From: a virus
DNA: 40,645 bases
IMG/VR virus record: IMGVR_UViG_3300028840_000558
Direction: 5' to 3' (one strand)
Each line of letters starts with the position of its first letter. The stretch's first letter is position 1. Positions 4,936 through 40,361 of the stretch are shown piece after piece. The notes beneath the pieces are model-generated. The model was given only the letters and a program-made list of their open reading frames with translations. It did no database searches and had not been told where the DNA came from. The translations under genes and the position numbers were made by a program.

Positions 4936-6435
4936 TCACCATCCTAAAATCGTGTTGGTCTCGAAGGTTGCCGGGAATATCCAGTATCCCAATACGTCCT
5001 CTGGGTCGGGCTCTAACCTCCAAGTCGTCCTGCAACCGCGGGTCGCCTGCCAGTCATGCTCGATGTAGGTGATGTAGTAATCCCCGTCAATCCCCAGTTT
5101 ATCAATATCCAGCACGACGCCATCGAATAAATCATATGCAAACTGGTAGGTAGGTCTCTCCTCGAAGCGTATCCAGGGTACTTTGCGGGGATCTGCGTAC
5201 AAATATATTGCAAATCCCGCGTGGTCTGCCGCTTCTTGTGATTCCTGGGTCCAAATCTCATTTACCGTCATGTCGCGCCTACCATAATCGTTGATGCTGA
5301 CGGTATCTGATTCGATAGCAAACGTCTTGCTCTCGTCCTGGTACAATTCCCCGCGCAGTTTCATCAAGGTCAGGTAAACGCCTCCCGCATCGTTGTTCGT
5401 GATTTCCAATTTCGCCTCGGTTGCATAATCAGTCATTGAGATGCTAATTTGCGCGGTCTTATCCGCGCCGCCGCCTCCTTCCTCCGTATTGGCGGTATAG
5501 TCCGTGGTAGCTACAGGCGTGGTCACGCTCTTAGCGGGAGCCCATTCGCCCTCGTCCTGGTACTCAGCCCAAATGGTCAAAGTACCACTTGCGCCGATAT
5601 ATGGGATGTCTGATAGTCTCCAAATCTCTATTGATCCCGACTCGCGCCTCGGGTGAGCTCCAATCCTGATGCGATTCTTTATCTCCTCCCATGGCTGCTG
5701 CAGCTCCATGTCCTTTAATAATTCAGACTGCGTGATCGTGACTTTTGGATCTAATCCATAAATGCGCGCCTCATAACTAAATGTGCCATCTGTCGCTACA
5801 AATGCGTTGCCCGCCCAAGTGTTCTCCAGTTCGTTGATCGCCTCCAGCACGGTCTTCTTCGGGTCTGACCACCAGTAGGGCATCGTGTCGCCGTTATTTT
5901 CAATCCCCGTACCACCCAATTCGCTGTTGGTCTCAAAAATCATCGGGAATATCCAGCCCGAAGTATCAGCGAAAGGCCAACCTGCAGCGACCGTTAAGTC
6001 GTTGATCGCCTCATTGACTAGGTAATCGGTCTGCACATCCCCGTGTTCGCAGTTCTGCTCCTGTAACCAGTCCAGCCCGTCAGAGCATACGATTTGCGCC
6101 TCCGATCTCCCCTGGAAGCCCCGTTGTGGTCGTACATCACGGATAAACCCGGTGAATAGGTTGTAAGTCAATGTGCCATCAGTTGCTTTTATCCGCACAA
6201 CGCGGTTTGGTAGTATGTACCCGTAAAGTTCCCCAGAGGTGTTGAACGGGTCATAGCGACCATCGTAATTATCCAGGGTGAGGTACGCCATCCCAGGGTT
6301 CACATGGGCGTAACCGTCCTTTTCCACAGTCCTGCGCTTGCCACGCTGGATGTTGAACCGGATCACCCGCCCGCCCTCATCGGTGAATGTCCCGTTATCG
6401 TCCCAGTCGATGTAAATGTAATATTGGGTCGCCAT
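4936..6435 (-). CDS. Minor tail / tail-tip (distal tail-like) protein, 499 aa
   Basis: Called on position, directly downstream of the tape measure. I did not recognise a specific motif. Confidence 0.5.
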   Translation of the reverse strand: MATQYYIYIDWDDNGTFTDEGGRVIRFNIQRGKRRTVEKDGYAHVNPGMAYLTLDNYDGRYDPFNTSGELYGYILPNRVVRIKATDGTLTYNLFTGFIRDVRPQRGFQGRSEAQIVCSDGLDWLQEQNCEHGDVQTDYLVNEAINDLTVAAGWPFADTSGWIFPMIFETNSELGGTGIENNGDTMPYWWSDPKKTVLEAINELENTWAGNAFVATDGTFSYEARIYGLDPKVTITQSELLKDMELQQPWEEIKNRIRIGAHPRRESGSIEIWRLSDIPYIGASGTLTIWAEYQDEGEWAPAKSVTTPVATTDYTANTEEGGGGADKTAQISISMTDYATEAKLEITNNDAGGVYLTLMKLRGELYQDESKTFAIESDTVSINDYGRRDMTVNEIWTQESQEAADHAGFAIYLYADPRKVPWIRFEERPTYQFAYDLFDGVVLDIDKLGIDGDYYITYIEHDWQATRGCRTTWRLEPDPEDVLGYWIFPATFETNTILGW

Positions 6436-6436: not shown

Positions 6437-7936
6437 TTACCTTCTTAAGGCATCATTTATTATCGGTACTAACTGTCGTTCAACTTCATATTGGTCTACA
6501 AACGATACAGCCGGGGAATACGTTAAATTAACCGTTGTCTGTCCTGGCTTAATGCGTGAATGACCAGGAACCCAGGTATTCATATTGGACGAGGTTGTAG
6601 GGTTTTCTCCGCCTCCCCCTAAATTTGGTAGGGTAATGTTGAATGCACCTAATACCGCGTTGATTGCTGTTTGACCCATTTTAAACCAGAGCATTGCCCA
6701 CCAGCGACCTACCGATAATACGCCATTACCAATCGCTGTTAGAATGTCTCTTCCGACCTGCCCCCAATCAACACTTCGTATGTACTCCAGCGTATCTTCT
6801 ATACGCTTCTCCATTACCCCTTTTATCGTATCCCAGATGCTTTTCCATAATTCCTGTAGAGTGTCTCCAAATTTCTCCCAGTCGCCCTCAAATGCCGCGC
6901 TGAATAACTCGAATGTAAGTTGCAATCCCTCCCAGACGCCCTCTACGAAAGTTTTGATACCCATAAAATCACTTTCCCAGGCAGAGCGCAAACCAGCAAT
7001 CCCAGCTTTCATCGCCTCAATTTTTGGAGACAACCATTCCCAGAACTCGCGCAAGGCTGGTAATAATTCCTCCTTCACCCAGCGGTAGGCATCCTTTAGC
7101 CAGGGGATTAATTCCTCTCTCAACCATCTGGCAACGTCCCTGATCCACTGTTGGAACTCCTCAGATGATACAAACTCGGTGATTTCATCTGCAAGATCCT
7201 GTATCAATGGTAGAAACGCCCCTCCGATTTCTTTAGCAGCAGTATCTTTCAGGTTGACCAGTGTTACGCTCAGTTGTTTGAATGGGTCGCTCATCTCGGG
7301 CAGGTTTTCGGTATTGATAGCAAGCTGTTGCATCACGGCATCAAATATCGCCATTTGCTGCTCGCTCTTTGTCAATTCCTTTGCGGTCTTTCCGACCGAT
7401 TCTGCATAGGCCTCCGTTGCGGCAGTCAAATCAACCTGTACCCCCAGGTTGTCCAAAATCATCGGGCTTACACGCCCAACGCCGCGCACAAGACTATCCA
7501 TCAGGAATCCCATGTCCTCGCCGGTCGCTGCGCTAACGCGGCTGAGATAATTCATGGCATTTGGTAATTCATTGGCAAAATCATCACTCACCAGACTGGC
7601 TGCCATGTTGTAGGATTTCATCAGGTCGGTATTGCGAATCAAGCCCCCTGACTGCCTTCTAAAGGCATCCATTAATTCATCGGCAGATTTTCCAGAACTC
7701 TCAGCAATCCCCTCGAATGCTTCCTCAATAGGACCGAGTTGGGCGGCATCTTTCGCCAAAACACCCAGACCAACCGCTAAACCACCAACCGCAGCTGTGG
7801 TCGCTCCAATTCCAGCTACGACTGCAGTACCAGCAAGTTTGCCCAGTTTGCCCAATGATCCAGATAAGCCGCCAATTATACCTTTTGTTTGATCTTTGGC
7901 ACTTATAATGATTTGTAGTTCTTCTTTGGTCGCCAT
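6437..7936 (-). CDS. Tail tape measure protein (short, 499 aa)
   Basis: Gly/Ala-rich hydrophobic N-terminus, long helical W/E-rich repeats, and position after the G/GT chaperone pair. Confidence 0.75.
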   Translation of the reverse strand: MATKEELQIIISAKDQTKGIIGGLSGSLGKLGKLAGTAVVAGIGATTAAVGGLAVGLGVLAKDAAQLGPIEEAFEGIAESSGKSADELMDAFRRQSGGLIRNTDLMKSYNMAASLVSDDFANELPNAMNYLSRVSAATGEDMGFLMDSLVRGVGRVSPMILDNLGVQVDLTAATEAYAESVGKTAKELTKSEQQMAIFDAVMQQLAINTENLPEMSDPFKQLSVTLVNLKDTAAKEIGGAFLPLIQDLADEITEFVSSEEFQQWIRDVARWLREELIPWLKDAYRWVKEELLPALREFWEWLSPKIEAMKAGIAGLRSAWESDFMGIKTFVEGVWEGLQLTFELFSAAFEGDWEKFGDTLQELWKSIWDTIKGVMEKRIEDTLEYIRSVDWGQVGRDILTAIGNGVLSVGRWWAMLWFKMGQTAINAVLGAFNITLPNLGGGGENPTTSSNMNTWVPGHSRIKPGQTTVNLTYSPAVSFVDQYEVERQLVPIINDALRR

Positions 7937-8173
7937 TTATCGCATTCTCCGCGCCTTTCGCTGTTCAGCCTGTGCAACTCTACCCCGCTCCATATTAGCC
8001 AACTCGCAGTAATGCCACCATCTACCTGTAAGTTTCTCCTCCATCTCCTGGGCCTTTAATGGATCAAACTCTGCTGCCGCCAGGATACGGAACCAGAGCG
8101 GAACATAAGCCTTGTATCCTCTAAAATAGGCGCGTATTTCTGCCCTATCTTTAGAGGTTATGTTGTAGGGTTT
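7937..8173 (-). CDS. gpT-like extension reached by a -1 frameshift from the chaperone (predicted 163-aa GT fusion)
   Basis: The -1 frame is open from 8176 to the TAA at 7939..7937, with no ATG, GTG or TTG near its 5' end. It exactly fills the gap to the tape-measure ATG (7936). An XXXYYYZ heptamer A_AAC_CCT at 8173..8167 is in the correct zero-frame phase. Confidence 0.55.
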   Translation of the reverse strand, partial: KPYNITSKDRAEIRAYFRGYKAYVPLWFRILAAAEFDPLKAQEMEEKLTGRWWHYCELANMERGRVAQAEQRKARRMR

Positions 8174-8427
8174 TCTTCATCACCTCCCCCCGTGATTGCC
8201 ACCATTAATGATCTAATTTGTGCTTCCGAGGCATCCAAGAGCGCTTCTCGCGCTTCGTCCCTGTCTTCTGGCTCGGTCACATATCCGAGAAATATTTCCA
8301 CTAACCCATCAATCGCACCTGGCGATAGATTATCCTTAAATTCGGAATACAACTCAAGGATATGTCGTTGTCGCCGTAGGTATCCTGGCGCGTCTATGCC
8401 TGGAGGGTCAAATTTTAATACTGTCAT
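8158..8427 (-). CDS. Tail assembly chaperone (gpG-like), 89 aa
   Basis: Small acidic protein between the tube and the tape measure, followed by a start-less overlapping ORF. Confidence 0.65.
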   Translation of the reverse strand: MTVLKFDPPGIDAPGYLRRQRHILELYSEFKDNLSPGAIDGLVEIFLGYVTEPEDRDEAREALLDASEAQIRSLMVAITGGGDEENPTT

Positions 8428-8442
8428 GTATAGTCCTTTCCA

Positions 8443-9453
8443 CTACTGTACTGCAGCTAGTGCGGGCACTACGTAAATCTCGCAGAACGCGGCGGCGTCT
8501 GGGTCGTAGGCAACCCGGAATGTCCCGGTTACAACATCATCTCCGTCCATGTCATCCAGTGGCGTGAAGTCCTCCCACGATCCCACCATGGAGATACGCA
8601 GCGTCTTATAGGTGAATGAAGTCCCGGCGGTCGTGAATGCGGTTCCCTCAAATATCAAGCGCAGTTTCCGCGCAGTCCTTGCGCGCCATGCGGCGATTTC
8701 GGTGATCGCATCGGCGTTGTGTTCCATGGTGATGTCGCAGCGGATCTCAGGTCCCACGTTTTTAGCAAAGGTGAAGTACAGCGATCCGTCCCCGGTGTAC
8801 TGCGGTTCCCATCCGGTATTACAGCGGAACTCAAAACCGCGCCAGAATGACGTTTTTTGAGTGTTGCCCCAGGTGACGGTATCACCATCGATGTAGATTT
8901 TGCCCTTGCCGAACAGGATCTCCTCCACGGTCGGGATCGTGGCGGTCGTAGTACTGGTGAACGTCCCAGTTGAGACTTGTCTCCCCACGATATTTGCCTG
9001 CATCATCACCGCTTCGCCCGGTACGCCTGACAGGGTGAAGTCGGTACAGAAACCGTAGGCGAACTCCTCCTCGCCGGAGTTATCGCCGCCCTCGACCGTG
9101 TAACTTTTGACCGATCCAGTATCGCTGGTCTGGTTGAACGGATATACGTAAACGTACCCGCTGCCGCTCCCGTCCTGCGATGCCGCGGCGGACTCGACGC
9201 CCATCTCAAGGATGTGCAATATCTGCTCAAACGTGGCGGGCGTCTCCTCTAAATCTAGCAATGCCTCATATTTGGAGATATAAGATCTGTTCACGCCTCC
9301 TTTATAGCCCACGTCCTCGTCGGGGAACACCAAACTCATGTTGTCTTCGATGGTGCCAGTCCCGCGCCAGTAGGTCGTCGCATCGACCTTTGTGCCCGCG
9401 GTCGTCTCCCGCCCCAATTGAATCTTTCTTAGTTTTCTGATACCTCCTGCCAT
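8443..9453 (-). CDS. Major tail (tube) protein
   Basis: 336 aa, immediately upstream of the chaperone pair. Called on synteny. Confidence 0.65.
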   Translation of the reverse strand: MAGGIRKLRKIQLGRETTAGTKVDATTYWRGTGTIEDNMSLVFPDEDVGYKGGVNRSYISKYEALLDLEETPATFEQILHILEMGVESAAASQDGSGSGYVYVYPFNQTSDTGSVKSYTVEGGDNSGEEEFAYGFCTDFTLSGVPGEAVMMQANIVGRQVSTGTFTSTTTATIPTVEEILFGKGKIYIDGDTVTWGNTQKTSFWRGFEFRCNTGWEPQYTGDGSLYFTFAKNVGPEIRCDITMEHNADAITEIAAWRARTARKLRLIFEGTAFTTAGTSFTYKTLRISMVGSWEDFTPLDDMDGDDVVTGTFRVAYDPDAAAFCEIYVVPALAAVQ

Positions 9454-9656
9454 TTACTCACCTCCTCTATCTCTGGCTTTTCCGATTTGCGCTTTTTATA
9501 TATTCTCCTCTCTTCCTCCGGTACAACCTCGATGTATAAACCCGAACCGATCAGCGCGCCGTAGTCCCAGCCGTTCGCCTCGATCTCCTCCAGCGTCAAA
9601 TCCCTGGATGGCACGCCTGGTATCCAACTATTCCCGATGTATTTCAGTTTGCACAT
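9429..9656 (-). CDS. Hypothetical protein, 75 aa
   Basis: ORF overlapping both neighbours. Lys/Glu-rich tail. Confidence 0.5.
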   Translation of the reverse strand: MCKLKYIGNSWIPGVPSRDLTLEEIEANGWDYGALIGSGLYIEVVPEEERRIYKKRKSEKPEIEEVSKWQEVSEN

Positions 9657-10368
9657 CTTTAATGTCCTCCTCTGGTATTGGGTTTACCTGGCAGTAAGTT
9701 CGGTAAGTCTGCTCCGTTACCCAATGCGTCCCCCCGTGCGGGCTGGTCAGGGTAAAATCGCACCATATTTTGATACCCGCCTCCTTCGCTTTCTGGCAAA
9801 AATAGTTATCGTGGCTGCCCAACGTCTTGCTGGGGTAATGCGGGTCGTTGATAAACCAAGGCCACTCCACCTGCTCGAACACTTCCCTGGCGATGATGAT
9901 ACATCCCGTGCCGATAGCGTCTACCTCGGCGCACTCTGGTTCCCATTCGTGAGGGCGATATATCCCCTGCTCTGATACATAGCACGCCAGCGGCGAGAAT
10001 GGCGCATTGCGTTTGAAATTCAACCCACCAACTACTAATCGCTCCGGGTCTTCTATCACGCGCCTGCACAACCTGTGAACCACATCAGTCGGGTGACGGT
10101 GATCGGCGTCCAGCATGACGATATGCGTCTTGTCACTATCTAGCAGTTCCTTAGCGGCTTCATTGCGCGCCCGATCTGCGAACATGTACGGCTGGTAGAT
10201 AAATGGGGTCCCGTACCTGGCAATTTCGTTGATGCGCGGCCATACCTCATCGGCAAACGGTAATGATTGCATCATTGGGATAAATACTACCGGCTTAGGC
10301 CAGTCCCAATGCACCACCGGCCATTTATTCAGTATGCTGTAATCAGGCTCGTACCCGTTATCGCCCAT
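9628..10368 (-). CDS. GT-A fold (family-2-like) glycosyltransferase
   Basis: VVFIPMM..., IVMLDADH (DxD-type motif) and AIGTGCIIIAREVFE are typical of GT2 enzymes. Confidence 0.65.
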   Translation of the reverse strand: MGDNGYEPDYSILNKWPVVHWDWPKPVVFIPMMQSLPFADEVWPRINEIARYGTPFIYQPYMFADRARNEAAKELLDSDKTHIVMLDADHRHPTDVVHRLCRRVIEDPERLVVGGLNFKRNAPFSPLACYVSEQGIYRPHEWEPECAEVDAIGTGCIIIAREVFEQVEWPWFINDPHYPSKTLGSHDNYFCQKAKEAGIKIWCDFTLTSPHGGTHWVTEQTYRTYCQVNPIPEEDIKDVQTEIHRE

Positions 10369-11485
10369 TCTTTACCATCTCCAATGCTTTCTGCCCTCCC
10401 GCGGCTCTCACCGCATTGTCCAGTTCCCTGGTCAGTTTCAAATTCTCCTCGAAGATCCCTAGTGCAAATCCCTTAGCGTATCCGGCGTTGATGTGCTGTC
10501 TTGTGAAGCTGTCTAGTTGCAGTCGCGCGGTTGGGCTCTTGCCGTGTTCATACGCCTCAATCGTGTAATCCAACCTGCCTGCGGTGCGGTGGATCATCTG
10601 GTGATACCTCTCGGCATCCTGCCGCGCCTGGCCTGCTGCTGCTTCATACTCGTTGCGATCTAAAATCGCCGTTCCCCCGTTCTGCAGCATCTCGGCAACT
10701 TTACTGGCGTACTTCTCTATTTCGTGCAAATGACCTTCCAGTTTACCCAAGGCGCCGCTGGCATTGATCAGTTCGCTTATCCTCTGCGATAAGTTCCCGT
10801 TGTTAAATGCCCTGGATAACGCCGCCTCTTTGCGGTCGTAGTCCTCCTTTGCCTCAGCGACCAATTCTCTCAGTTCCTCGGCGCGCTGGTCAAATCCTTC
10901 GGTTGTCCGCATGATGTCGCCTTCATAACCATAAACCGGCTGGTTGAAAAGCGAATTGCCGCCGTAGTAATCCACCAGGATACTCTTACCCAGCGCAATC
11001 CCGGTGTAGAAAGCGATGCAATCGCGCTGCCTTATATACTCGGTATCGGTCGCATTCTCCACACCATAAACGCAGATTTTGTTAGGTCTCTTGGTGATCG
11101 CCAATGCCAGGGCGTATGCGATCGACGAGGTGAAGAATTTAAGCTCCTTCAACTCAACTCCCTGCCTGAACCCGCTCAAGAGTGAATAGCATACTTCTTT
11201 CAGCGGGTATTTGCGGGAATTGGGCACCAGCGGATCAACCTCCAGCATATAAATCACTAGGTCGCCATGGTTCTGCTGCAGCCAGCGCCAATGATCTTTA
11301 TCGGCGCGGTTGTGAGAACTGCGGTAGACCTCCGGCGGGTGCATTTGGAACAATACCCGCGCGTTCCCCTTTGTCCATGGCGAGGTGTAGGTCTCGTTGA
11401 ATATCCAGAGTTCAGCCTCTGGATTGTCAAACGGCGCCATTTCCCTAGTCGCTGGATGCGTCCCCACAATGTGTATCTCGCTCAT
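10358..11485 (-). CDS. Rossmann-like N-domain plus coiled-coil protein, paralog 2 (possible sugar-transferase-like)
   Basis: IHIVGTHP...ELWIFNE...FFTSSIAYALALAI...ICVYGVE...EY. It is a paralog of the upstream gene and is ATGA-coupled to it. Confidence 0.4.
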   Translation of the reverse strand: MSEIHIVGTHPATREMAPFDNPEAELWIFNETYTSPWTKGNARVLFQMHPPEVYRSSHNRADKDHWRWLQQNHGDLVIYMLEVDPLVPNSRKYPLKEVCYSLLSGFRQGVELKELKFFTSSIAYALALAITKRPNKICVYGVENATDTEYIRQRDCIAFYTGIALGKSILVDYYGGNSLFNQPVYGYEGDIMRTTEGFDQRAEELRELVAEAKEDYDRKEAALSRAFNNGNLSQRISELINASGALGKLEGHLHEIEKYASKVAEMLQNGGTAILDRNEYEAAAGQARQDAERYHQMIHRTAGRLDYTIEAYEHGKSPTARLQLDSFTRQHINAGYAKGFALGIFEENLKLTRELDNAVRAAGGQKALEMVKNGR

Positions 11486-12618
11486 TCGCCCATCACCATC
11501 TCTAACGCTTTCACTCCACCTGCGGAGCGTACCTGCTCATCGTATAGTTCCATCCAGCGGGTATTCTCCGTTCTCACCCCATTCGCTACACCAGCGGCGT
11601 AACAGGCATTTCCATGCTCTGCGATACGGTGCCCGATTTGCGCCCGCAATGCTGCCGCTCTAGCCGACTTATCCCCGCTCCACATATCGATAAACGGTTG
11701 CAGTTCTCCAGCGGTGCGGTACACCTCGTTGCGGTAGTCATTAGCGTCCTGGGCGGTAAGCGCCAGGGCACTCTCCCATTCTCCACGATCCAGAAAAGCG
11801 GTTCCCCACTTCTCCAGCATATCGCTGACGATGTTATGGAACCTTTCCGACACCTGTAAAGCGCCTTCCAGATTACCCCATTCCGTCATCGCTTGAGCCC
11901 ATTCGGTGATGCGCTCGGATAGTTTCTTGTTGTTCCAGGCACGCAACAGCGCGTCAGCCTTGCGCTCCACTTTCTCGCGCGCCTTGCGGATCTCCGTTTT
12001 CAACTCTCTGACACGCTCCTCGAAGGTTTCCAGTTTCTGTTCCAAGTTGCCCTCATAAGCGTACAGCGGGAAGCGGAAAATCCCGTCCCCGGAATAGAAG
12101 TTAACTTTTATCCCGCGCCCGATTGCAATGCCCGTCCAAAACGTCAGGTTGTCTCGCTGGTATTCCCACTCTGTGTCGCTTGACATTTCCACGCCGTACA
12201 CATTGATTTGGGAATACCCCTGATAAATTGCCAGGGCGATTGCATATACCGGAGTAGAGCGGAAGAACGGGCACTCCTCCAGGTCCACCCCTTGATGGAA
12301 GTTACCCAACAGTTCCAGACAAATCCCCTCCAGGGGATACCGCACCGAGTTTGGCACATCCGGGTCAACCTCCTGCATATAAATTTTCAAATCGCCGTGA
12401 TCCTGCTGTAACCATTCCCAATGGTGCGGGTCACAACGGTTGTGCGGCGATTGGTAAACTACCGGGATGTGAATCTGGAATACTGCATCCAAATCCCACT
12501 CCTTCGCCCATTGGTTAGCCGCCTCGTTCATCACCCATACATCCACATCGGGATCATGTGACGGTGCGAGGTGGCGCGTATCCGACTGGCTGCCTACGAT
12601 CGCTACGGTTTGGTTCAT
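11482..12618 (-). CDS. Rossmann-like N-domain plus coiled-coil protein, paralog 1
   Basis: VAIVGSQS...DVWVMNE...FFRSTPVYAIALAI...INVYGVE...EY. I chose the ATG at 12618, which forms an ATGA overlap with the upstream stop. Confidence 0.4.
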   Translation of the reverse strand: MNQTVAIVGSQSDTRHLAPSHDPDVDVWVMNEAANQWAKEWDLDAVFQIHIPVVYQSPHNRCDPHHWEWLQQDHGDLKIYMQEVDPDVPNSVRYPLEGICLELLGNFHQGVDLEECPFFRSTPVYAIALAIYQGYSQINVYGVEMSSDTEWEYQRDNLTFWTGIAIGRGIKVNFYSGDGIFRFPLYAYEGNLEQKLETFEERVRELKTEIRKAREKVERKADALLRAWNNKKLSERITEWAQAMTEWGNLEGALQVSERFHNIVSDMLEKWGTAFLDRGEWESALALTAQDANDYRNEVYRTAGELQPFIDMWSGDKSARAAALRAQIGHRIAEHGNACYAAGVANGVRTENTRWMELYDEQVRSAGGVKALEMVMGE

Positions 12619-13046
12619 GCAAGGATGCTGGTATCTTCGATCTTGATACCGGTGACGGTGAACGTCCAACCGGAGTAATAATCCGGCTGAGTTTCACTAC
12701 CCAGGTTGATGTTGGCGCTGAACGTGTATTCGATGTCTCCGAAGGTCTGGCAGGTGCTGTTTAGCGTGACGTTTTTCTCCAGTTCTGCCGCTACCAGTTC
12801 GCCCATTGGCAAGAGCGTTTTGAGTGTTTTTGCCAAGTCAATTCGCGGGCAGTAGACGTACAACTCGACGCTATGGAGCCCCTGTAAAACGCCAGTAGGG
12901 GCCTGCCGGAATACGCCGCTTGACGGTAATGCCATAGCAAATATCCCCGGAGGCAATTTGTCAGTTGCGTACTCCGGCGCAGCTCGTACCCCCTGTACGT
13001 CCCCTACAATGGCGAGTATTTCTCGTATCGCATCGTCAAGAGCCAT
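12615..13046 (-). CDS. Head-tail joining / tail-terminator-like protein (called on position)
   Basis: 143 aa, directly after the gp6-like adaptor. Confidence 0.4.
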   Translation of the reverse strand: MALDDAIREILAIVGDVQGVRAAPEYATDKLPPGIFAMALPSSGVFRQAPTGVLQGLHSVELYVYCPRIDLAKTLKTLLPMGELVAAELEKNVTLNSTCQTFGDIEYTFSANINLGSETQPDYYSGWTFTVTGIKIEDTSILA

Positions 13047-13049
13047 GCG

Positions 13050-13667
13050 CTACACCATACTGATTTTGAACGCGTCCAGCGTGCGCTTCGCGTCAGGATG
13101 CCAGCCTGGGACTACCGCGATCTGACCGACCTCGGTTGGACCAAGCACCCCCGTCGGGGAAGCGTTGTAGTCATGCAGGCATTGGAGCAAACACGCCTCC
13201 TTGATAGCATTCAGGGTGCTTGCTGGCGCGGTCGCTGCGTGGTAGTTGAAGCGCCCGACCACCTTGACCGCCTTGGCGCTCGTTGGGAAGCATAGAGATC
13301 CCAGTGGCAGCCGGTCGATCCTGAAATAGGGTAAACCCTCCGAGCTGGCGTTATAGGGGTAAGCCTCAAAGTGTGTGCCCTCTGTCCAGCTGGTCGAGTA
13401 TGTCCTATCCACCTCATCATCGGTCGCCACGCTGGTTATCGTGGTGATCGGGTCAATCCAGCAGTGTGATACATCCTGGGCGGTAAAGTAGCGCGTCTCA
13501 TCGCTGCCAGTGTTGTAAAAGCGCGTCCCGGTATACAGGTTAATTTCCCTGCTCACCTTGGCGATGATGCGCGCTAGTTCGGTGTCGTTTACATCATCGG
13601 GCACCTGGTCGCTAGGCCACAGTCTCGCCTTGAGTTCGTCCAGAGTGCAGTAGTCGCCAGTCGCCAT
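13050..13667 (-). CDS. Head-tail adaptor (gp6-like connector)
   Basis: The N-terminus YCTLDELKARLWPSDQVPDDVNDTELARIIAKVSREINLYTGTRF matches the gp6-like connector pattern. Confidence 0.65.
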   Translation of the reverse strand: MATGDYCTLDELKARLWPSDQVPDDVNDTELARIIAKVSREINLYTGTRFYNTGSDETRYFTAQDVSHCWIDPITTITSVATDDEVDRTYSTSWTEGTHFEAYPYNASSEGLPYFRIDRLPLGSLCFPTSAKAVKVVGRFNYHAATAPASTLNAIKEACLLQCLHDYNASPTGVLGPTEVGQIAVVPGWHPDAKRTLDAFKISMV

Positions 13668-13679
13668 GCGCTACCTCCG

Positions 13680-13943
13680 CTATTGGTTCAGAGTTGCAAG
13701 GTAAGTCAGAACCACCGTCCCCTCGGTCGATACGCCGTAAATGGCTTCATTAGGACCGACATACAGGTCGATTTTTCCACTGGCTGGCAAATAGTGCCCG
13801 GTCGTTGTCGACACCGTAGAATTGCCGATATAAACTACGCCCTGGCTTGATACCTGGATATGCACATACGCGCCATCCCTATCAGGCGGGAATATCAACG
13901 TTGGATTGGTGGTTACTGTTACCTTATTTGTGGAAAGTGTCAT
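13680..13943 (-). CDS. Hypothetical small beta-rich protein, 87 aa
   Basis: Start moved to the ATG at 13943, which has a GAGGAA RBS. Confidence 0.5.
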   Translation of the reverse strand: MTLSTNKVTVTTNPTLIFPPDRDGAYVHIQVSSQGVVYIGNSTVSTTTGHYLPASGKIDLYVGPNEAIYGVSTEGTVVLTYLATLNQ

Positions 13944-13947
13944 AGAC

Positions 13948-14322
13948 CTATTCCTCGTAAACCAGAATAAGCGCGCCTGATTTACTAGCACCTCCCTCAT
14001 CTACAGTAAGTTTAGGTCTGCCCATGATGATAAATGGTTCCCGATCTCCACCGCTAGTCCCTGTCAGATCCGATCCCGTTTCGCCTTGCAACAACCTGCG
14101 CGGATACCATATTTTGTCGGCTGTTCCGGCATTAGTGATAGTCAGGATAGTTTCGGTTACGGGATAAGAGTCCCAAGTCAGTGTCAAATCTGTTCCAGTA
14201 TCCATGTCTCCGCGGTCATAAAGGACTGCGATCAAGCGCCCAAAGATCGACTTCTCGCCATAGGTAACGAGGTCGCCAGATGCGTCCACGGTTATCGCGA
14301 TACGCATATCTTTTAGGGTCAT
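13948..14322 (-). CDS. Hypothetical structural-module protein, 124 aa
   Basis: ORF coupled to both neighbours. Confidence 0.55.
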   Translation of the reverse strand: MTLKDMRIAITVDASGDLVTYGEKSIFGRLIAVLYDRGDMDTGTDLTLTWDSYPVTETILTITNAGTADKIWYPRRLLQGETGSDLTGTSGGDREPFIIMGRPKLTVDEGGASKSGALILVYEE

Positions 14323-14498
14323 TTCGTGGCCTTTTTAGCGCGCGGCTTTGGTTCGTCCTCTAAATCATCGTAGGGTGACACTTCCTCGACCTTACCTGCG
14401 TATTTTGATTTAATCAAAAAATCAGGCACCCAGGCAATCTCACCCTTTTTAAACTGGTCGATAGCAACCTTGAATTTAACTCGTGACATTAAAGGCAT
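14319..14498 (-). CDS. Hypothetical protein, 59 aa
   Basis: Hand translation MPLMSRVKFKVAIDQFKKGEIAWVPDFLIKSKYAGKVEEVSPYDDLEDEPKPRAKKATK. GGAGGA RBS and an ATGA overlap with the next gene. Confidence 0.5.
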   Translation of the reverse strand: MPLMSRVKFKVAIDQFKKGEIAWVPDFLIKSKYAGKVEEVSPYDDLEDEPKPRAKKATK

Positions 14499-14510
14499 GA
14501 TTTATCCTCC

Positions 14511-15413
14511 TTATACTGGGTCTATTGCGGTCGTACCGAGGTAGTTGACACCCCAGTTGTTAGTTGTGACAGTCCCTGCATCATCGTAGGGCGATGTAGT
14601 TGTAGCAACACCGTAGCCAGCGCTATTACCAGACACAAAAGCGCGCGACACGGCAGAACCAAGAGTTATCGCCAGACCTTCAGTGTTCGCCTTGAGCGCA
14701 AAAGTGTTATTGATAATCCGGTGATATGCGCCCGCAGATATATTGATGCAATCTCCGGTCAATCGGTCAAAGTGGCATCCCTCAATCCACACCCCAGGCG
14801 GGTCATCCTGCACAGAAATTCCCCCCGAGGAAAGTGAGGACAAGAAGAAGCTATCAGTTACCGCGATATTAAATCCCCAATCACCAGAAGTGACGGATAG
14901 TCCGTAGGTGCCCTGTGCAAAGAAGCACTCATGGATATGCAGCATTTTCTTTCCATCATCTACCGTTATCCCGGCAGATGCCGCATTCGGATAAAACCCT
15001 AATCCTTCGAGGTAAACACAGTCCGCTACAATATCCATACATGCGGTCGTTGAGGGCGCATACATACATACCCATTTCGTTGATGGGTGTCGGGGCTGCA
15101 GTCCAATGATGTTGACTAAGCTCTTGTTGACACTAACCGGCCACGTTTCGCCGGTTGGTTGATAGTAATCAAGTATAAAGATGTAATCATTCGCCTCGGT
15201 TGTGCAGTATGACAACGCTTTGGTCAGCGTCATCAATGGTTCTTCGGGCGAAAGCCCATCATTAGCATCACTACCAGTTCCAAATCCGTTCGCCCAGGTG
15301 ATCCCATTGACGTAGAACACCTCGCCATGATTTGGTGGCAGACTACTTTGAATCCCGTCTGCTAAGTCGCGGAGTTTGCTTACTCCCTTTCTCAATATAT
15401 ATGATCTAGACAT
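14511..15413 (-). CDS. Right-handed parallel beta-helix (pectate-lyase-fold) protein
   Basis: GSDANDGLSPEEPLMTLTKAL is followed by repeated short hydrophobic/Gly/Asn rungs (ITVDDG, LSVTSGD, ISVQDD, INISAG, IINNT). Confidence 0.55.
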   Translation of the reverse strand: MSRSYILRKGVSKLRDLADGIQSSLPPNHGEVFYVNGITWANGFGTGSDANDGLSPEEPLMTLTKALSYCTTEANDYIFILDYYQPTGETWPVSVNKSLVNIIGLQPRHPSTKWVCMYAPSTTACMDIVADCVYLEGLGFYPNAASAGITVDDGKKMLHIHECFFAQGTYGLSVTSGDWGFNIAVTDSFFLSSLSSGGISVQDDPPGVWIEGCHFDRLTGDCINISAGAYHRIINNTFALKANTEGLAITLGSAVSRAFVSGNSAGYGVATTTSPYDDAGTVTTNNWGVNYLGTTAIDPV

Positions 15414-15480
15414 TATTATCCTCCTTTGCCTCCGGGGGAGGGTTGTAATACCCTCCCCTATCAGGCTCTCATATCAGAGT

Positions 15481-17763
15481 TTATACAGTAATGTTGTAGG
15501 TGATGGCGCTTGCATCGGAGTCCCGATACGCCAAACCCCAGCGCAGCAATGCAACGATTTGGTTGGTGTCGGCCTCGGGCCAACGGTCAATCTCCATGGT
15601 CATGCGCCGTTTCCAGCGCAAAGCCCATTGATCCCAGCGGACTGCAAAGAACGCGCCTTTAGTGTTATTCGATTCGGTAGTCTGATCCACTTTGCCGCTG
15701 GTATTGGCCTTCAGCTGGTACGCGGCGGTCGTGACCGTGCCGAGCAGAACCCCGGCGTAGTGCATAAAGTGACTTACCTTTACCGGATAACCCCAGATTG
15801 CGGTCAGCATACCGTTTTCGATGGTCGCCCCAGAGAATACATCCCTGGTCTTGACCTCAGACAGTTCTAATGCCTTCCAGTGTACCCACGGATCTAGGAC
15901 GAAACTAACCTTGGTTCTATCAGTCGCATGCTTCCCGGCGGTTCCCATCAGTTTGAGTGTTTCCAGAAAATCTTCCACAGCTAAAACGCCACCATCTCGT
16001 GAATTTGCGGTGTTCGTGACTAGCCCCAACTTGCGGAAACCGTCCACCAGGTTGAATACCGCAGTACCGGCGGGTTGTGCCCCAATGTCATTGATATTCG
16101 TGGTGTTCGCGCTTGATGTGTCGCCATCGATGATAGCGTGTTCCATTTGCTCCTGACCGCTTACCTGGATCTGTCGGTAAGCGTTTGGCACCCAGCGGAC
16201 CAGCGAGTCCTCAACCATCTCGCCGGTAAACAGAACTCGGCACCCCATTTTTGCTAGAGAAACGCTCTTCTGTGCAGTGCCAATCGGCGAGGCGGTAACA
16301 GACGCTACCGGGCGCAAACAGGTCGAATCGACCGCCGTAGTCTGCGCGACCTTGTACCAGATTGGGTCGGTGCTTTCCAGTGGCACAATGTCGCTTTCGT
16401 ACCCGTCGGGGATCTGGCGCACATCGCCGCCCCGCTCTAGTTCAGACAGCACCCACGTCCCGGCTCGGATTTTCTCCCACAGGTCGGAATGGTACAGGAC
16501 TCCAACCCACTGATCGCCGTAGCTGGAGTAGGTGGAGTAGTTGACCTCGTTAGCCTTGATCTCTGGCGCCAGTTTGTGCAGCGCCTTCATCGCGGAATAA
16601 CTGTGCTTGTCGCCCTTCTGCGCTTCGCTATCAGCTTTGAGTGCCAACGCCTTGACTGCAGCATCGGTGATGTTCTGTCCTTCTCCGCGCTGATGGTATA
16701 ACCCTTTCCAGCATGACAGCATAAATGCATGTTCGCCTGGAGTAAGGTCATCGAATTTATCGGTGTCGCCATACTTTTTGATATACGGCATACCGTCGTC
16801 AGACGATAGGCGGTTCGCTTTGGCAGCCTCGGCCTCCCACTTCTCGCGCTCGGCTTTGACTGCAGCGTCGATCTTCTCCTGTTCCGCTTTGGCGACGGCT
16901 TCGGCGACTTCGCGCTTTTCAGTCTCAGCCTTTAACGCATCAGCAACTTGTTTAGCAACAAGTTCTTGTACTTCTTTCTCTTCCATGATTTTTTGTCCCT
17001 CCATAACTCGTTCTGAGCTTTCTAAATGATTGGTGTCCGGGGAGGTCTGAGGCTTCACCGCGCCACCCGGCTGGGTCTCTAGCGTGGTCTCCGGCCCGTC
17101 CATCTCCGGCAGTTCGGGCAGTTCTAATCCCGCCCGCTTATAACTCTTCTGCGCTATGGGTAGCGCCACCGCGTATTGGTTGGCGGGTTGGCGGCTGCCC
17201 ACGGCGTCTAACAAACTCAACTCGGTAATCGGCCAGTGCAGGATCTCTCCATCAGTAGCGGTCCGTACCAGGTGCGATATGCTCCCGCTCGATGCCCTGG
17301 CGATGCCCTGCTTGGCCGCTTCCCAGACGCGCTTGGCGTACTCGCTGGCTTTATCCAGAACCACTCTCCACCACACACCATCAGCGCGCTTTTCATAACC
17401 GTTGGTCTCGCCGATAATCTCCGGGTCTCCCTGGGGATTTCCTTCTGGGTCGAAACCGTGGTAATACGTCACCAGGGGCTTGCTAAACCGATCCAGGTAA
17501 AATTCGGTCTTCGAGCTGAAGTACTCGCCATCGGCGTCTTTTCCCCCTTGTGGCCCCCCATAGGGGATGCCGAGTACTTCCAGCTCCCAATCCCCCACGG
17601 CTTTGACCGATATACCCTTAACGCTCTTCTTCGCCTGTTCCCACATGCTGTAACAGACCGCCACGGCCTGCTTGTTGTCCTCGGCGGTTCCATCCTCCAG
17701 CACAACCGGGATGCAGCGCTGGATAAATTCTTCTTGTGTTTCCCCATCCTGCGGTTCCGGCAT
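15481..17763 (-). CDS. Prohead protease / coiled-coil scaffold / HK97-fold major capsid protein fusion
   Basis: The N-terminal third looks like an HK97-type prohead protease (LVTYYHGFD...ARASSGSISH). The middle is EKEVQELVAKQVADALKAETEKREVAEAVAKAEQEKIDAAVKAEREKWEAEAAKA. The C-terminal 400 aa or so are capsid-like. I chose the start at 17763, which has an AGGAGGA RBS. Confidence 0.7.
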   Translation of the reverse strand: MPEPQDGETQEEFIQRCIPVVLEDGTAEDNKQAVAVCYSMWEQAKKSVKGISVKAVGDWELEVLGIPYGGPQGGKDADGEYFSSKTEFYLDRFSKPLVTYYHGFDPEGNPQGDPEIIGETNGYEKRADGVWWRVVLDKASEYAKRVWEAAKQGIARASSGSISHLVRTATDGEILHWPITELSLLDAVGSRQPANQYAVALPIAQKSYKRAGLELPELPEMDGPETTLETQPGGAVKPQTSPDTNHLESSERVMEGQKIMEEKEVQELVAKQVADALKAETEKREVAEAVAKAEQEKIDAAVKAEREKWEAEAAKANRLSSDDGMPYIKKYGDTDKFDDLTPGEHAFMLSCWKGLYHQRGEGQNITDAAVKALALKADSEAQKGDKHSYSAMKALHKLAPEIKANEVNYSTYSSYGDQWVGVLYHSDLWEKIRAGTWVLSELERGGDVRQIPDGYESDIVPLESTDPIWYKVAQTTAVDSTCLRPVASVTASPIGTAQKSVSLAKMGCRVLFTGEMVEDSLVRWVPNAYRQIQVSGQEQMEHAIIDGDTSSANTTNINDIGAQPAGTAVFNLVDGFRKLGLVTNTANSRDGGVLAVEDFLETLKLMGTAGKHATDRTKVSFVLDPWVHWKALELSEVKTRDVFSGATIENGMLTAIWGYPVKVSHFMHYAGVLLGTVTTAAYQLKANTSGKVDQTTESNNTKGAFFAVRWDQWALRWKRRMTMEIDRWPEADTNQIVALLRWGLAYRDSDASAITYNITV

Positions 17764-17773
17764 ATTTCCTCCT

Positions 17774-17824
17774 AAAAACAAAAAAGCGCAACCAGCACGG
17801 AATAATCCCGCGCGAATTGCGCTT
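17774..17824 (-). terminator. Terminator-like hairpin plus U-tract immediately upstream of the capsid RBS
   Basis: Minus-strand RNA AAGCGCAA-(25 nt)-UUGCGCUU followed by UUUUGUUUUU, then AGGAGGAAAUAUG. Confidence 0.45.
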
Positions 17825-17927
17825 CGATACATCGAACTTTTGCGCCCCTGCGATTCCCTTTTCGCCCCACCCTCACCGGGTCTCTAGGGCTATCCTGTCA
17901 CCGCAGGTACGTTATTCAACTGTCGAT

Positions 17928-17956
17928 ATTATACCATAAATACAATACTATGCAAG
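17928..17956 (-). promoter_or_regulatory. Extended -10 promoter (TGGTATAAT) with a weak -35 (TTGCAT)
   Basis: TATAAT at 17933..17928, TGG at 17936..17934, and TTGCAT 16 nt upstream. Confidence 0.5.
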
Positions 17957-17963
17957 CGGTTTA

Positions 17964-18173
17964 TTATGTTGGAAAAATTTCCACAGGTAAATTCAAATTC
18001 CCCAAATGTTCACCTGCATATTTACCGATATAATAGGCCGCCACAACAACCTCAATAGGATTTTCAAAATCAATCGGTTGTCCAAATATAGAACTCCTAT
18101 CCATTCTACTAATTATCTTTTCATATTGTCTATCAATGTATCCTCGACGTTCCCTGTCAATAACCTCGCTCAT
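17964..18173 (-). CDS. Hypothetical protein, 69 aa (AT-rich)
   Basis: ORF only. Confidence 0.45.
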   Translation of the reverse strand: MSEVIDRERRGYIDRQYEKIISRMDRSSIFGQPIDFENPIEVVVAAYYIGKYAGEHLGNLNLPVEIFPT

Positions 18174-33749: not shown

Positions 33750-34587
33750 GATATATCCTATGGGATTTGTAATCCTTAAATGGAATATGTCCTAGAAATC
33801 GTTGTTTTGACCAATAACGCACATAATCTTTTAGTTCTCTTTCTGTCCAATATTCGCCTATATATTGGTTTCGTTTTATTGAATCGAGTGGCTGGTAGCG
33901 CATGGGACTTACCCATATACCTAAATTCTTCAATGTCTCCAATCTATATAACGCATCCTCGGGTGTATCTTTGAAACCGATAAGACAATAAACCCGCAAT
34001 TTATTTTTAGGTATTCCAGCATCCATTAATAATTGCAACGATCCTAAAACTTTATTCTCGATCTTGGCATTATCCCAAGCTAATCTCACACAATACAAAT
34101 CAAGCTCTGATAGTCTATTGGCGTGATAATTATTAAGCAATCGGGCATCCAGGCCCTGATTAAAATCTATTCCTTTTATAGACTTTAATTTGTCTATCAC
34201 GCTATCAAAATGAAACTTACTCGATGCTAAAAAGTTATTGTCACAAACAATTGGTTTTATTTTCCAATCATCAAGTTCTACAAAATCCCCTTCTATTTTA
34301 GGTACTATGCAAAACGGACACTGACGTATACAACCCCTAGTAGTAAACGTAGCGTCTGGATTATGTTTTTCTAAAACACCATCCATTGAATTTCGAACTA
34401 ATGCAACGCTTTTTAAATATTGTGGGTTATACAAGACCGCCGGACCGCCAGCAACAACCTTATATCCTAGTGACTTATACCAAATCGCTCGCTGATAAGT
34501 CTTGGCTAATTGCCATGAAAAAACTACAGAAAGGTAAGCTGTATCATTCTCGATCCAATCAATAAGTCCGCCAGACCATTTAGTCAT
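33721..34587 (-). CDS. Radical SAM domain protein
   Basis: CxxxCxxC motif CIRQCPFC at about 34309..34332. Lies in the AT-rich island. Confidence 0.65.
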   Translation of the reverse strand: MTKWSGGLIDWIENDTAYLSVVFSWQLAKTYQRAIWYKSLGYKVVAGGPAVLYNPQYLKSVALVRNSMDGVLEKHNPDATFTTRGCIRQCPFCIVPKIEGDFVELDDWKIKPIVCDNNFLASSKFHFDSVIDKLKSIKGIDFNQGLDARLLNNYHANRLSELDLYCVRLAWDNAKIENKVLGSLQLLMDAGIPKNKLRVYCLIGFKDTPEDALYRLETLKNLGIWVSPMRYQPLDSIKRNQYIGEYWTERELKDYVRYWSKQRFLGHIPFKDYKSHRIYHEYSSERLI

Positions 34588-34609
34588 ATTGTTTATTAAT
34601 TCCTCTTAC

Positions 34610-35362
34610 TCAATTTGAGTAGCCTGCACGTTTCAACTCCTCAACGGATGTGCCGTTAGTCTTGCTGTCTTTGCGGTTGGACTGGAATCCTTCCACCTGC
34701 CATCGTTTTAGAATCGCCTCGGCATAAGACCACGACCGTTTATTCTGGCGCGACGCCTCCTCAATTGCCGCGATAATCCACTCCTCCGGTATTTGTTCAT
34801 CATCAATCCACGACGCTATAGAATCCATGACCTTTGGAGTTAATACCCCTATCTCTGATTCATAAGAATTAAAGACAGAAGAACTATTACTACTGCCTTT
34901 CCTTTCTTCTTCTTCTTTATTTTCTTCTTCTTTAATTAACGATATGGTATCTATACCGTATGGATAGGGTATATTATTAGTAGAATAGGGTATTTTTTTC
35001 TGATAATATGCTATATAAATGTGTTTTAATTCGCAATCTGGTATTTCGTCTAGATCCTTTTGGATTCGTTTTTCTACAAGCGAACTTCCCTTATGGTATT
35101 TGCGCATGTTCACAATCCATACGATTCCCTCACGGTAAATAACCTTGTTCCCTTGCTCGAATTTAATAAGTGAATTTTTTATGAAGTCCTCGTCAAGCCC
35201 GGTTTCCCAATGCATTACTTTAATGGGTAATTTATAAATCCCGCTAAGACTAGCAAGCTCATTAGAAAACAAGTAAATAAATAACAGTTTTTCATCTGAA
35301 TTTAAATCTATGAACCATTCATCTTTCCAGATGCTTACATGAATTTGACGATAATTAGCCAT
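34610..35362 (-). CDS. DnaD / replisome-organiser-like replication protein
   Basis: The C-terminus FNSYESEIGVLTP...AIEEASRQNKRSWSYAEAILKRWQVEG resembles a DnaD-type domain. Confidence 0.6.
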   Translation of the reverse strand: MANYRQIHVSIWKDEWFIDLNSDEKLLFIYLFSNELASLSGIYKLPIKVMHWETGLDEDFIKNSLIKFEQGNKVIYREGIVWIVNMRKYHKGSSLVEKRIQKDLDEIPDCELKHIYIAYYQKKIPYSTNNIPYPYGIDTISLIKEEENKEEEERKGSSNSSSVFNSYESEIGVLTPKVMDSIASWIDDEQIPEEWIIAAIEEASRQNKRSWSYAEAILKRWQVEGFQSNRKDSKTNGTSVEELKRAGYSN

Positions 35363-35375
35363 AAATACCTCAATA

Positions 35376-35897
35376 TCAAAGCAGGAACGGATTGATTAAA
35401 TCGGTTTCTTCAATGCTTTTTATCCAATCTACATCCTCATCAGTTAATTGAAACCATTCTCCAAATACACACTTGCCAGCAAACATCTGATGTAAAATTT
35501 TTTCAAGTTCGGAGCACCTCTTTGAGCGGATTTTATGGATCAACATTAAACTAGAGTTTCCCGTAGATGATTGCAGAGCATTAAGACGCTTGCGAATATC
35601 AGTAGTCATTCCAATTTTATATAAATTACGTTCGCAATCTTTGATTAGATAAACATATCCAATGCGTCGTCTTACACCCTTGAAATCATCAAGCAATCCA
35701 AGTTTCTCTAGTTCTGCCACATCGCGTTCAATATTTTCTAGCGACTTATGAGTATAAAAAGCTAGGTCTTCGGAAGTAACCAACTCTTCTTTCCAAGAAA
35801 ATACTAAACAAATTTCAACGAATGTTCGCCACAGCCTGTCGCTCAACGTACCAATTTTGTAGTTATTTAATATATGATGATTAATTACGAGTTTCAT
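35376..35897 (-). CDS. T5orf172 (GIY-YIG-like) domain protein with an N-terminal winged-helix-like region
   Basis: GYVYLIKDCERNLYKIGMTTDIRKRLNALQSS...ELEKILHQMFAGKCVFGEWFQL. Confidence 0.6.
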   Translation of the reverse strand: MKLVINHHILNNYKIGTLSDRLWRTFVEICLVFSWKEELVTSEDLAFYTHKSLENIERDVAELEKLGLLDDFKGVRRRIGYVYLIKDCERNLYKIGMTTDIRKRLNALQSSTGNSSLMLIHKIRSKRCSELEKILHQMFAGKCVFGEWFQLTDEDVDWIKSIEETDLINPFLL

Positions 35898-36019
35898 TCC
35901 GCTCCTTACGCAAACACCCGCTCACCACCATTTCTGTTAGCTGCTAGGGCACACAGGACTGGGTAGATGAGCGGGTATTCGCACAGAAACATAAATCCTG
36001 CGTGCAACCTAGCCCCACA

Positions 36020-39650: not shown

Positions 39651-40361
39651 TTACTTTACCCACTTAGCATATACCTTGCCGCGGTAGCGCATTGCGGCGT
39701 ATTGGCAGTAGCCCAACACCATCCAGAGATCGTTGCCATCGGGGAATGAACTGCCTCGTACAAGACATATAACCTCGACCAATTCGCCTTTATTTAGGTG
39801 ATATGTAACAGGGTTAGCAGTTCCTGGTCCAGTACGTATATTCAGGAACGGGTCAGCGGTGATTTCCGCAACGGGCAACTCTGGAAACTGCGGTATTTCA
39901 ATCTCAACTGGTTCCGGTTCCTCGTCAATGCACTTGACCAGGTATGGAGCCGGGTCGATTGGCACTCCATCTTTACGAAGTTCAAAGTGCAGGTGTGGTC
40001 CGGTGCTATTGCCCGTGTTGCCCAAATAACCAACAAAATCTCCGGCTCTGACATCCTGACCTTCGTCAACGACAATATCTCTTAGATGGGCATAAATAGT
40101 CATAAAGTGAATGTTGTGAGCGATACGTACATGATAACCATAGCCAGTTTTAGCCCATCGCCTATCAGATACAACCCCATCAGCCGAGGCAAGTACGGTT
40201 GTTCCCATAGGAGCGCCAAAGTCAACCCCCCCATAGTAATAAACGCCACTCGGACATGGACCAGGCTTATGGCACCACCCATTCACCTTTGCCCACTTCA
40301 CATGCTCCGCAAACGTCTGTGTTATTGGAGCATTTGACGGGACTGGATATAAAAGTTTCAT
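39651..40361 (-). CDS. M23 peptidase with a C-terminal SH3-like domain (endolysin candidate)
   Basis: GGVDFGAP...GYHVRIAH...GNTGNSTGPHLHFELR. The C-terminus is LNIRTGPGTANPV...GELVEV. Confidence 0.8.
   Translation of the reverse strand: MKLLYPVPSNAPITQTFAEHVKWAKVNGWCHKPGPCPSGVYYYGGVDFGAPMGTTVLASADGVVSDRRWAKTGYGYHVRIAHNIHFMTIYAHLRDIVVDEGQDVRAGDFVGYLGNTGNSTGPHLHFELRKDGVPIDPAPYLVKCIDEEPEPVEIEIPQFPELPVAEITADPFLNIRTGPGTANPVTYHLNKGELVEVICLVRGSSFPDGNDLWMVLGYCQYAAMRYRGKVYAKWVK

Follow-up and report, generated by a model that had tools for sequence, protein, structure and literature searches.

A 40,645-nucleotide viral contig (IMG/VR record IMGVR_UViG_3300028840_000558; "the window" below means this whole stretch of DNA at its full length) carries, within the morphogenesis operon of a siphophage, a three-gene cassette that in our assessment probably glycosylates virion proteins, with two paralogous products acting as transferases. 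The cassette runs from 12618 to 9628 on the minus strand, as do all genes of this region, and consists of overlap-coupled open reading frames (ORFs) for paralog A (378 residues; 11482-12618), paralog B (375 residues; 10358-11485) and a divergent GT-A/GT2-like protein (246 residues; 9628-10368). All three ORFs were found as the initial annotation had described them, and the coupling to the structural operon that it had claimed was located at each of the three upstream-facing junctions: an ATGA overlap links the preceding 143-residue ORF to paralog A (12618-12615), a second one links paralog A to paralog B (11485-11482), and paralog B shares 11 nucleotides (nt) with the 246-residue gene. The longest ORF for paralog A opens at a TTG at 12669, which was judged less likely as a start than the ATG at 12618. 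Scanning positions 8000-18000 for promoter- and terminator-like sites revealed no excess.

The two paralogs, previously estimated at about 375 residues each, share 46% identity across 372 residues (E = 9e-115), far above chance. Each is 43-46% identical to homologs on other contigs, about the same as to its sister copy, and the duplication is therefore old. The motif IVG..W.FNE..SS.AYALALAI..I.VYGVE was found in both, and neither has lost any of the residues invariant in the family alignment (A1). The invariant polar residues N30, E31, Q47, H49, N59, E149, Q153 and Y185 are of the kind expected in an enzyme, and the C-terminal domain has conserved motifs of its own (R277-x-E-x-E and G339..G343...E347-N348). 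The family is large: a word-indexed protein search returned 50 close clusters, 216 IMG/VR loci were confirmed, and a profile of the N-terminal domain (N-domain) detected 4,609 representatives (50% clusters) at E≤1e-3 in a set of 1.84 billion proteins, 616 of them at E≤1e-30. Short homologs consisting of the N-domain only occur elsewhere in some genomes, outside the capsid-tube interval. An independent C-terminal module was considered and rejected, as in the loci analysed this domain was always fused to the N-domain and the two C-only matches were fragments at contig ends. Searching a phage database with paralog B by tblastn gave a Microcystis phage as the only match and none in mycobacteriophage records. 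This phage, Mvi-Yong1342-1, encodes a stand-alone N-domain homolog of 267 residues (PP496355.1 34781-35584; 28.5% identity), whose label "type 11 methyltransferase" looks wrong because the protein has no methyltransferase match in Pfam.

Neither paralog matched any model in Pfam, PHROG or NCBIfam. Against PDB sequences, single-sequence and profile searches likewise gave no match, the profile finding no sialyltransferase at E≤10. The hidden Markov model libraries were thus empty for the paralogs; structure searches led to the sialyltransferase CstII. AlphaFold2, run with the family alignment, modelled paralog B at full length with a predicted local distance difference test score (pLDDT) of 89.6, and the N-domain alone with a pLDDT of 86.6 and a predicted template modelling score (pTM) of 0.85. 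In the model of paralog B, an N-terminal alpha/beta domain (residues 1-190; nt 11485-10916) is followed by a short disordered linker with a nearly invariant YGYEG and by four helices of 35-55 residues (195-229, 232-270, 277-315 and 318-373; pLDDT about 90), which together span residues 195-373 (nt 10903-10367). The corresponding parts of paralog A are an N-domain at approximately nt 12618-12046 and a helical C-domain at approximately nt 12033-11491. The C-domain had been described as a long coiled coil. Its long helical character is retained in the model, whereas four modelled helices together with the conserved motifs fit a bundle of helices better than a simple coiled coil.

In Foldseek searches of the PDB, CstII came first with the full-length model (1ro8_B, E=2.5e-3, probability 1.0) as well as with the N-domain model (E=3.2e-4, probability 1.0, TM-score 0.44-0.49). 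For the N-domain, the Pasteurella multocida GT42 sialyltransferase 9c08 was second (6.5e-3), and after GT42 the list continued with thiamin pyrophosphokinases and human ST6GALNAC2; SteA was among the matches of the full-length model. The matches among viral models were short uncharacterised phage proteins and a DUF115 protein of ChoanoV1 (E=8.2e-3, probability 1.0). These results agree with the earlier impression, gained by eye, that the N-domain recalls sialyltransferase- or Maf-type sugar transferases. Profile alignment of the family with CstII by hhalign was collinear, with IVGtHPaT on IAGNGPSL in the N-terminal glycine loop, W.FNE on FRCNQ (the N-E/N-Q motif after strand 2), TSSxAYALALAI..I.vYGvE on TSGVYMCAVAIALGYKEIYLSGID, which was the sole confidently aligned block, and TEY on SSY. 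As modelled, the N-domain has the fold of sialyltransferases, DUF115 proteins and pyrophosphokinases with a sialyltransferase-like pattern of motifs, and by the tests run it is outside GT42 and PF01973. The likeness to sialyltransferases is one of fold and motif, not of family membership.

GT42 enzymes are inverting enzymes of the GT-A type without a DxD motif, and His188 is the general base of CstII (PMC4202792). Members of GT42 (CstII, CstI and the P. multocida enzyme) are the best solved matches of the N-domain, sharing with it the collinear glycine loop, N-Q/E and T-S-x...G-x-D/E motifs. Unlike them, the paralogs fall under family-level sequence similarity, do not keep His188 and have an extra, long helical domain; moreover, GT42 enzymes sialylate lipooligosaccharide, not proteins. 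For a protein-directed enzyme the closest comparison is Maf, which combines an N-terminal degenerate Rossmann domain, a CstII-like core and C-terminal helical bundles (PMC11339370), and in which the acceptor is chosen by a C-terminal TPR domain or by GlfM, a predicted four-helix bundle that bridges enzyme and flagellin (bioRxiv 10.1101/2023.12.03.569772). Judged from the paralog model and the published description of Maf, the two would share a layout in which a helical domain stands C-terminal to a CstII-like catalytic domain, and by analogy the paralogs, like Maf, would O-glycosylate the subunits of a self-assembling polymer before assembly. The paralogs differ from Maf in lacking a PF01973 match and the additional N-terminal Rossmann domain (their putative catalytic domain starts at residue 1), and all contexts examined were phage structural modules, with no flagellar locus among them. 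In contrast to GlfM, their helical module is fused to the catalytic domain.

The third protein of the cassette had been called a GT-A/GT2-like enzyme with a DADH motif. It matched phrog_1574 (2.3e-13) and phrog_12406, a glycosyltransferase group (2.9e-7), and carries the MLDADH (LDADH at nt 10099-10110) and GTGCIIIAREVFE motifs. Its similarity to Pfam GT2 (PF00535) was under the cut-off (E 0.0059; 17 bits against 23.3), and only 3 of 14 subfamily members showed weak matches of the GT2 type. In an alignment of these 14 diverse members (A7), N69, D89, R120, P123, F164, D187, D204 and H211 are invariant, and within the LDxDH motif L86, D87 and H92 are nearly so; the DxD-type motif of the subfamily is thus conserved. 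The best PDB match of the subfamily profile was A197 of Sulfolobus turreted icosahedral virus (STIV; PDB 2C0N), at a marginal E=0.013 and over the DxD region and the next conserved block, followed at 0.67 by Dpm synthase. A197 is reportedly a small GT-A glycosyltransferase of viral origin that has a DxD motif, and the STIV capsid protein is said to be glycosylated. Unlike the protein of the window phage, A197 comes from a virus of archaea; the substrate of A197 itself is unproven. Distant relatives labelled "glycosyltransferase" were found by tblastn in uncultivated phages and in cluster-J mycobacteriophages (3e-7 to 5e-5), among them gp11 of Thibault (27.5% identity, E=5e-5). From its sequence we accept the 246-residue protein as a divergent GT-A enzyme; membership in GT2 is unproven.

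Genomic context was analysed in 80 IMG/VR loci seeded on the paralog family, in 10 contigs taken from a protein index and in another 77 loci for which the tail tube protein served as seed (the tube-protein seed gave 80 loci, 3 of them already in the family-seeded set). Wherever a family-bearing locus had both landmarks, the capsid gene and the tube gene, the two-domain gene lay in between; about 110 related loci show this placement. Within the interval it occupied one of two sites, immediately downstream of a 165-residue ORF that itself comes after the capsid gene, or downstream of the adaptor and 143-residue genes. Among the 24 tube-seeded loci with both capsid and tube genes, 12 carried the family: 9 had it together with the GT-A gene and 3 without; 5 had the GT-A gene only and 7 had neither. 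The family, being present in only half of these lineage members, is therefore accessory rather than part of the structural core, and a core structural protein was rejected as its identity; nor did the paralogs match any structural or assembly family. Some phages (L013, L014, L026 and L031) carry the family without another transferase.

The capsid-tube interval of related phages is rich in glycan enzymes. We detected several GT2 types above the Pfam threshold (up to 94.6 bits), methyltransferases of the Methyltransf_24/TylF-like, FkbM and class-I (Methyltransf_23/11) types, a polysaccharide pyruvyl transferase, a sulfotransferase, an RmlD/epimerase-like protein, an IspD/MobA-like cytidylyltransferase and a B12-radical-SAM enzyme (examples at L100:4740-7224, L065:3360-4346, L032:8511-9494 and L072:3768-4445). 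This variety implies glycans that are both elaborate and diverse. In 18 loci, the next gene downstream of the family gene encodes a 201-residue protein with the motifs GNGPSL, FGSN and LVGvDH (for example L055:8125-8730, where it overlaps the family gene by 4 nt, and L100:3539-4144). It has no Pfam match, and its profile gave spurious ferritin matches and a weak one to CstI among PDB sequences; hhalign against CstII, in turn, returned a probability of 91% over the full length. By sequence, it looks like a second and clearer sialyltransferase-like enzyme of the islands. Together with the IspD-like cytidylyltransferase, this CstII-like enzyme is an indirect hint at a cytidine monophosphate (CMP)-sialic acid donor. 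Within these hypervariable islands, the two-domain family is apparently the most constant element across an uncultivated siphophage lineage.

Glycosyltransferase cassettes in structural operons are already known from mycobacteriophages. The initial annotation had held that this position in the operon normally contains no enzymes; there is precedent for them, however, as the structural operon of mycobacteriophages also houses cassettes of glycosyltransferases and methyltransferases (PMC11600133). PMC11600133 and PMC12619734, citing Freeman et al. 2023, describe virion glycosylation cassettes in Che8, Corndog and Myrna and state that such cassettes modify capsid and tail tube. The resemblance lies in the transferase genes sitting inside the virion structural operon, in the window and in all related loci; glycans on the subunits of capsid and tail tube would be the expected result. 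In Thibault (cluster J), gp11 directly follows the major head protein and opens a gp11-gp19 cassette, in which a further four glycosyltransferases, one kinase and one methyltransferase come after it and ahead of the genes for the head-tail connector. The window differs in that its cassette is built on the sialyltransferase-fold family, belongs to a phage of different lineage and host and is inserted just upstream of the tail tube gene rather than just after the capsid gene. Mycobacteriophage cassettes often add an O-methyltransferase; the window cassette has none, and many relatives do.

Candidate acceptors were sought among the structural proteins. In relatives, the approximately 165-residue ORF directly after the capsid gene ends in a tail rich in serine and threonine (S/T), for example ...PRYKQTTHISATASASA, ...SST or ...SAT (L018:4317-4814, L005:5135-5626 and L089:6398-6901). 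This was the case in 100 of 100 family-positive loci, whose 59 distinct tails average 3.07 S/T in the last six residues. The 14 family-negative loci have a tail ending in ...QPSMIVD with 1.0 S/T (for example L113:4313-4780), a contrast that is not independent evidence because these 14 loci form one clade. On its sequence, the 165-residue ORF is a candidate for C-terminal glycosylation in relatives, and its S/T tails are reminiscent of mycobacteriophage capsid and tube proteins, which are glycosylated at C-terminal sites (PMC12619734). For the window itself, the 336-residue putative tube protein (8443-9453, minus strand) may be the acceptor: its loop STGTFTSTTTAT (residues 161-172; nt 8938-8973) is the S/T-richest 12-mer among the window structural proteins, is variable in the tube family and is longer than in 18 aligned relatives (alignment A5).

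From the gene structure, paralogy, fold, conserved residues, accessory status and constant site in a glycan-enzyme island, we infer a transferase activity, its donor and acceptor, and a division of labour between the genes. The three genes would be expressed late and, while the phage is still within its host cell, add sugars to virion proteins that the phage itself encodes. Each paralog would be a soluble, self-contained protein O-glycosyltransferase of two domains, the N-domain (CstII/Maf-type, of GT42/DUF115-like fold) binding a nucleotide-sugar and moving the sugar to serine or threonine of a structural protein, and the helical C-domain picking the protein acceptor by docking the virion subunit before assembly. 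The donor would most plausibly be a CMP-linked ulosonic or nonulosonic acid from the host; a host supply is suggested because no donor synthesis is encoded by the window ORFs scanned. Two paralogs might serve two acceptors or two different sugars, and the 246-residue GT-A enzyme might add a second, nucleoside diphosphate-linked sugar or extend with it. That the paralog family represents virion "sialyltransferases", of Maf-like type and equipped with their own helical domain for acceptor recognition, which cap capsid or tail proteins of environmental siphophages with host-derived sialic-acid-like (nonulosonic or ulosonic) sugars, is a tentative version of this scheme that we regard as doubtful. 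Our literature search found no description of nonulosonic-acid modification of phage virions.

Virion glycosylation, as the initial annotation had suggested, is a prediction supported by every computational test available; several findings nevertheless weigh against it. The family belongs to no glycosyltransferase family at the sequence level, and 45 of its members gave no Pfam match at E≤1, including to PF06002 and PF01973. The Foldseek TM-scores are only about 0.45-0.5, for a fold that is also used by ATP-dependent pyrophosphokinases, and the hhalign probability of the family against CstII is only 29%. The catalytic His188 of CstII has no counterpart, the position aligned with it in the extended hhalign comparison falling in "TGIALG", and the invariant His49 of the family sits elsewhere in the sequence. 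There is no donor-synthesis gene among the window ORFs scanned, smaller ORFs being left out of that scan, and the S/T-tailed 165-residue protein of relatives has no homolog in the window.

The last of these findings would also suit a cassette that modifies a glycan outside the virion, either in the host envelope late in infection or on phage DNA, which we consider unlikely. Candidate purposes of an envelope modification would be to block superinfection or the adsorption of progeny to debris. According to PMC12619734, DNA glucosylation and serotype conversion are the roles for which glycosyltransferases of phages are chiefly known, and the epimerase, cytidylyltransferase and pyruvyl transferase of the relatives' islands could equally build a polysaccharide. 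However, the genes are always found between capsid and tube genes, overlap-coupled, and never with replication or lysogeny genes; the three enzymes have no membrane or other hydrophobic segment and no adjacent flippase-like partner; and in relatives the presence of the family goes with an S/T-rich tail on the capsid-adjacent protein, within the limits of the one-clade contrast noted above. The lack of hydrophobic segments also led us to reject a membrane-bound serotype-conversion enzyme. Modification of the host surface, offered in the initial annotation beside virion glycosylation, is accordingly graded as the less likely of the two.

The remaining explanations question whether the paralogs are glycosyltransferases at all. 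They could be nucleotide-dependent enzymes of another kind (a pyrophosphokinase, kinase or nucleotidyl-transferase, of the thiamin pyrophosphokinase/MptE type) acting on a small molecule or a protein. Thiamin pyrophosphokinases matched the N-domain nearly level with CstII (probability 1.0, TM-score 0.40-0.47), SteA was among the matches too, DUF115/PF01973 is named after a pterin pyrophosphokinase, the CstII catalytic histidine is not conserved in place, and the cassettes of cluster-J mycobacteriophages include a "kinase". We nonetheless give this explanation a low probability, a little below that of a non-virion glycan: three independent searches were topped by sialyltransferases or DUF115, the collinear motifs match the N-terminal glycine loop and the core helix-strand motifs of CstII, and the neighbours are overwhelmingly glycan enzymes. 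Pyrophosphokinases typically have an invariant aspartate cluster, and the invariant residues of the family are N, E, Q and H, with no such cluster. Least probable, in our judgement, is that the paralogs are non-catalytic assembly or structural factors, such as a chaperone or scaffold for head-tail joining, that keep an old Rossmann-like fold. Half of the phages with the same capsid, adaptor and tube genes do without the family, the position of the gene within the module varies, the alpha/beta domain holds most of the invariant residues, which are polar, and stand-alone N-domain versions exist outside the structural module. This has to be set against a location strictly inside the morphogenesis operon, a long helical domain resembling those of scaffolds and chaperones, the four loci in which the family occurs with no other transferase, and one relative that its source labels "chaperonin cofactor prefoldin".

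The limits of the insertion were defined from the flanking genes, all of which are on the minus strand. Upstream lies the 143-residue ORF (12615-13046), a head-tail joining or tail-terminator-like gene, preceded by the head-tail adaptor (205 residues; 13050-13667; phrog_442, head-tail adaptor, 8.5e-8). Downstream, a conserved 75-residue ORF (9429-9656) overlaps the GT gene by 29 nt and the tube gene by 25 nt. Many relatives, among them those without any transferase, have a homolog of this small ORF immediately before the tube gene, and the ORF is therefore assigned to the tail module. Where relatives have no insert, the 143-residue ORF comes directly before the 75-residue ORF or the tube gene. 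The cassette had been placed between tail terminator and tail tube genes; it does lie between these two regions, but it does not abut the tube gene, as the 75-residue ORF intervenes. Neither the 143- nor the 336-residue ORF had a family match in Pfam or PHROGs, and the names "tail terminator" and "tail tube" are assigned by position only. The tube call is supported by the order of tube gene, approximately 90-residue ORF (89 residues in the window) and tape-measure gene (7936-6437; matches to tape-measure PHROGs). In one relative (L002:12211-14218), two tube-protein paralogs of 333 and 330 residues stand in tandem.

Further upstream, the ORF list and library scans place the terminase at 22330-21062 and the portal at 20833-19298, followed by a Mu-F-like protein between the portal and capsid genes and by a capsid fusion protein of 783 residues (17832-15481). 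Relatives of the capsid gene (15481-17832) show Peptidase_S78 and Phage_capsid. Its true start may be the Met codon 24, because the first 23 or so codons are hydrophobic and basic. A weak DpdA match at residues 618-776 of the capsid protein (E=4.9e-4, below the cut-off) was taken as spurious. Directly after the capsid gene, a 300-residue right-handed beta-helix/DUF1565 protein (15413-14511; its homolog in L002 has 555 residues) may be a capsid-borne fibre or a polysaccharide-binding or -degrading protein; several small ORFs separate it from the adaptor gene. The tape-measure ORF (6437-7936) is the second of two back-to-back ORFs of exactly 499 residues each, the other occupying 4936-6435. A low-GC stretch at 34000-36000 (0.37-0.38 versus about 0.5 elsewhere) contains an ORF for a GIY-YIG/T5orf172 protein (35376-35897) adjoining a DnaD-like replication gene and is probably a mobile homing-endonuclease insertion. 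The window further encodes a pentapeptide-repeat protein (603-1217) and an M23 peptidase with an SH3 domain (39651-40361). No tRNA genes were found. Pentapeptide repeats and matches to Microcystis and Synechococcus phages hint weakly at a cyanobacterial host. Among isolated phages, neither a megablast search with the region nor a tblastn search with the tube protein gave a match, and the portal is only about 30% identical to Geobacillus and actinobacteriophage portals, the nearest among isolates. A scan of GTDB genomes for the family by sequence pattern gave no match.

To our knowledge, proof of virion glycosylation in tailed phages comes essentially from mycobacteriophages alone; there, the modification dampens recognition by antibodies. 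What the present locus adds is a family with a predicted sialyltransferase fold and a helical domain, unannotated and very abundant, with the use of CMP-type acidic sugars implied. It suggests that virion glycosylation is common in uncultivated siphophages, in the form of a fast-evolving glycan-enzyme island, and that a new and abundant enzyme family is likely a protein-directed transferase. If this is true, a function could be given to several thousand phage protein clusters now called "hypothetical", protein glycoengineering would have at its disposal a compact soluble enzyme in which the module for acceptor recognition is fused, and the surface chemistry of phage particles in the environment, from charge and stickiness to recognition by hosts, grazers and immune systems, would become testable. 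Should the sugars be sialic-acid-like, virion glycosylation would be widespread beyond mycobacteriophages, and acidic sugars on the particles could alter how phages adsorb, aggregate, are grazed or are recognised by immune systems.

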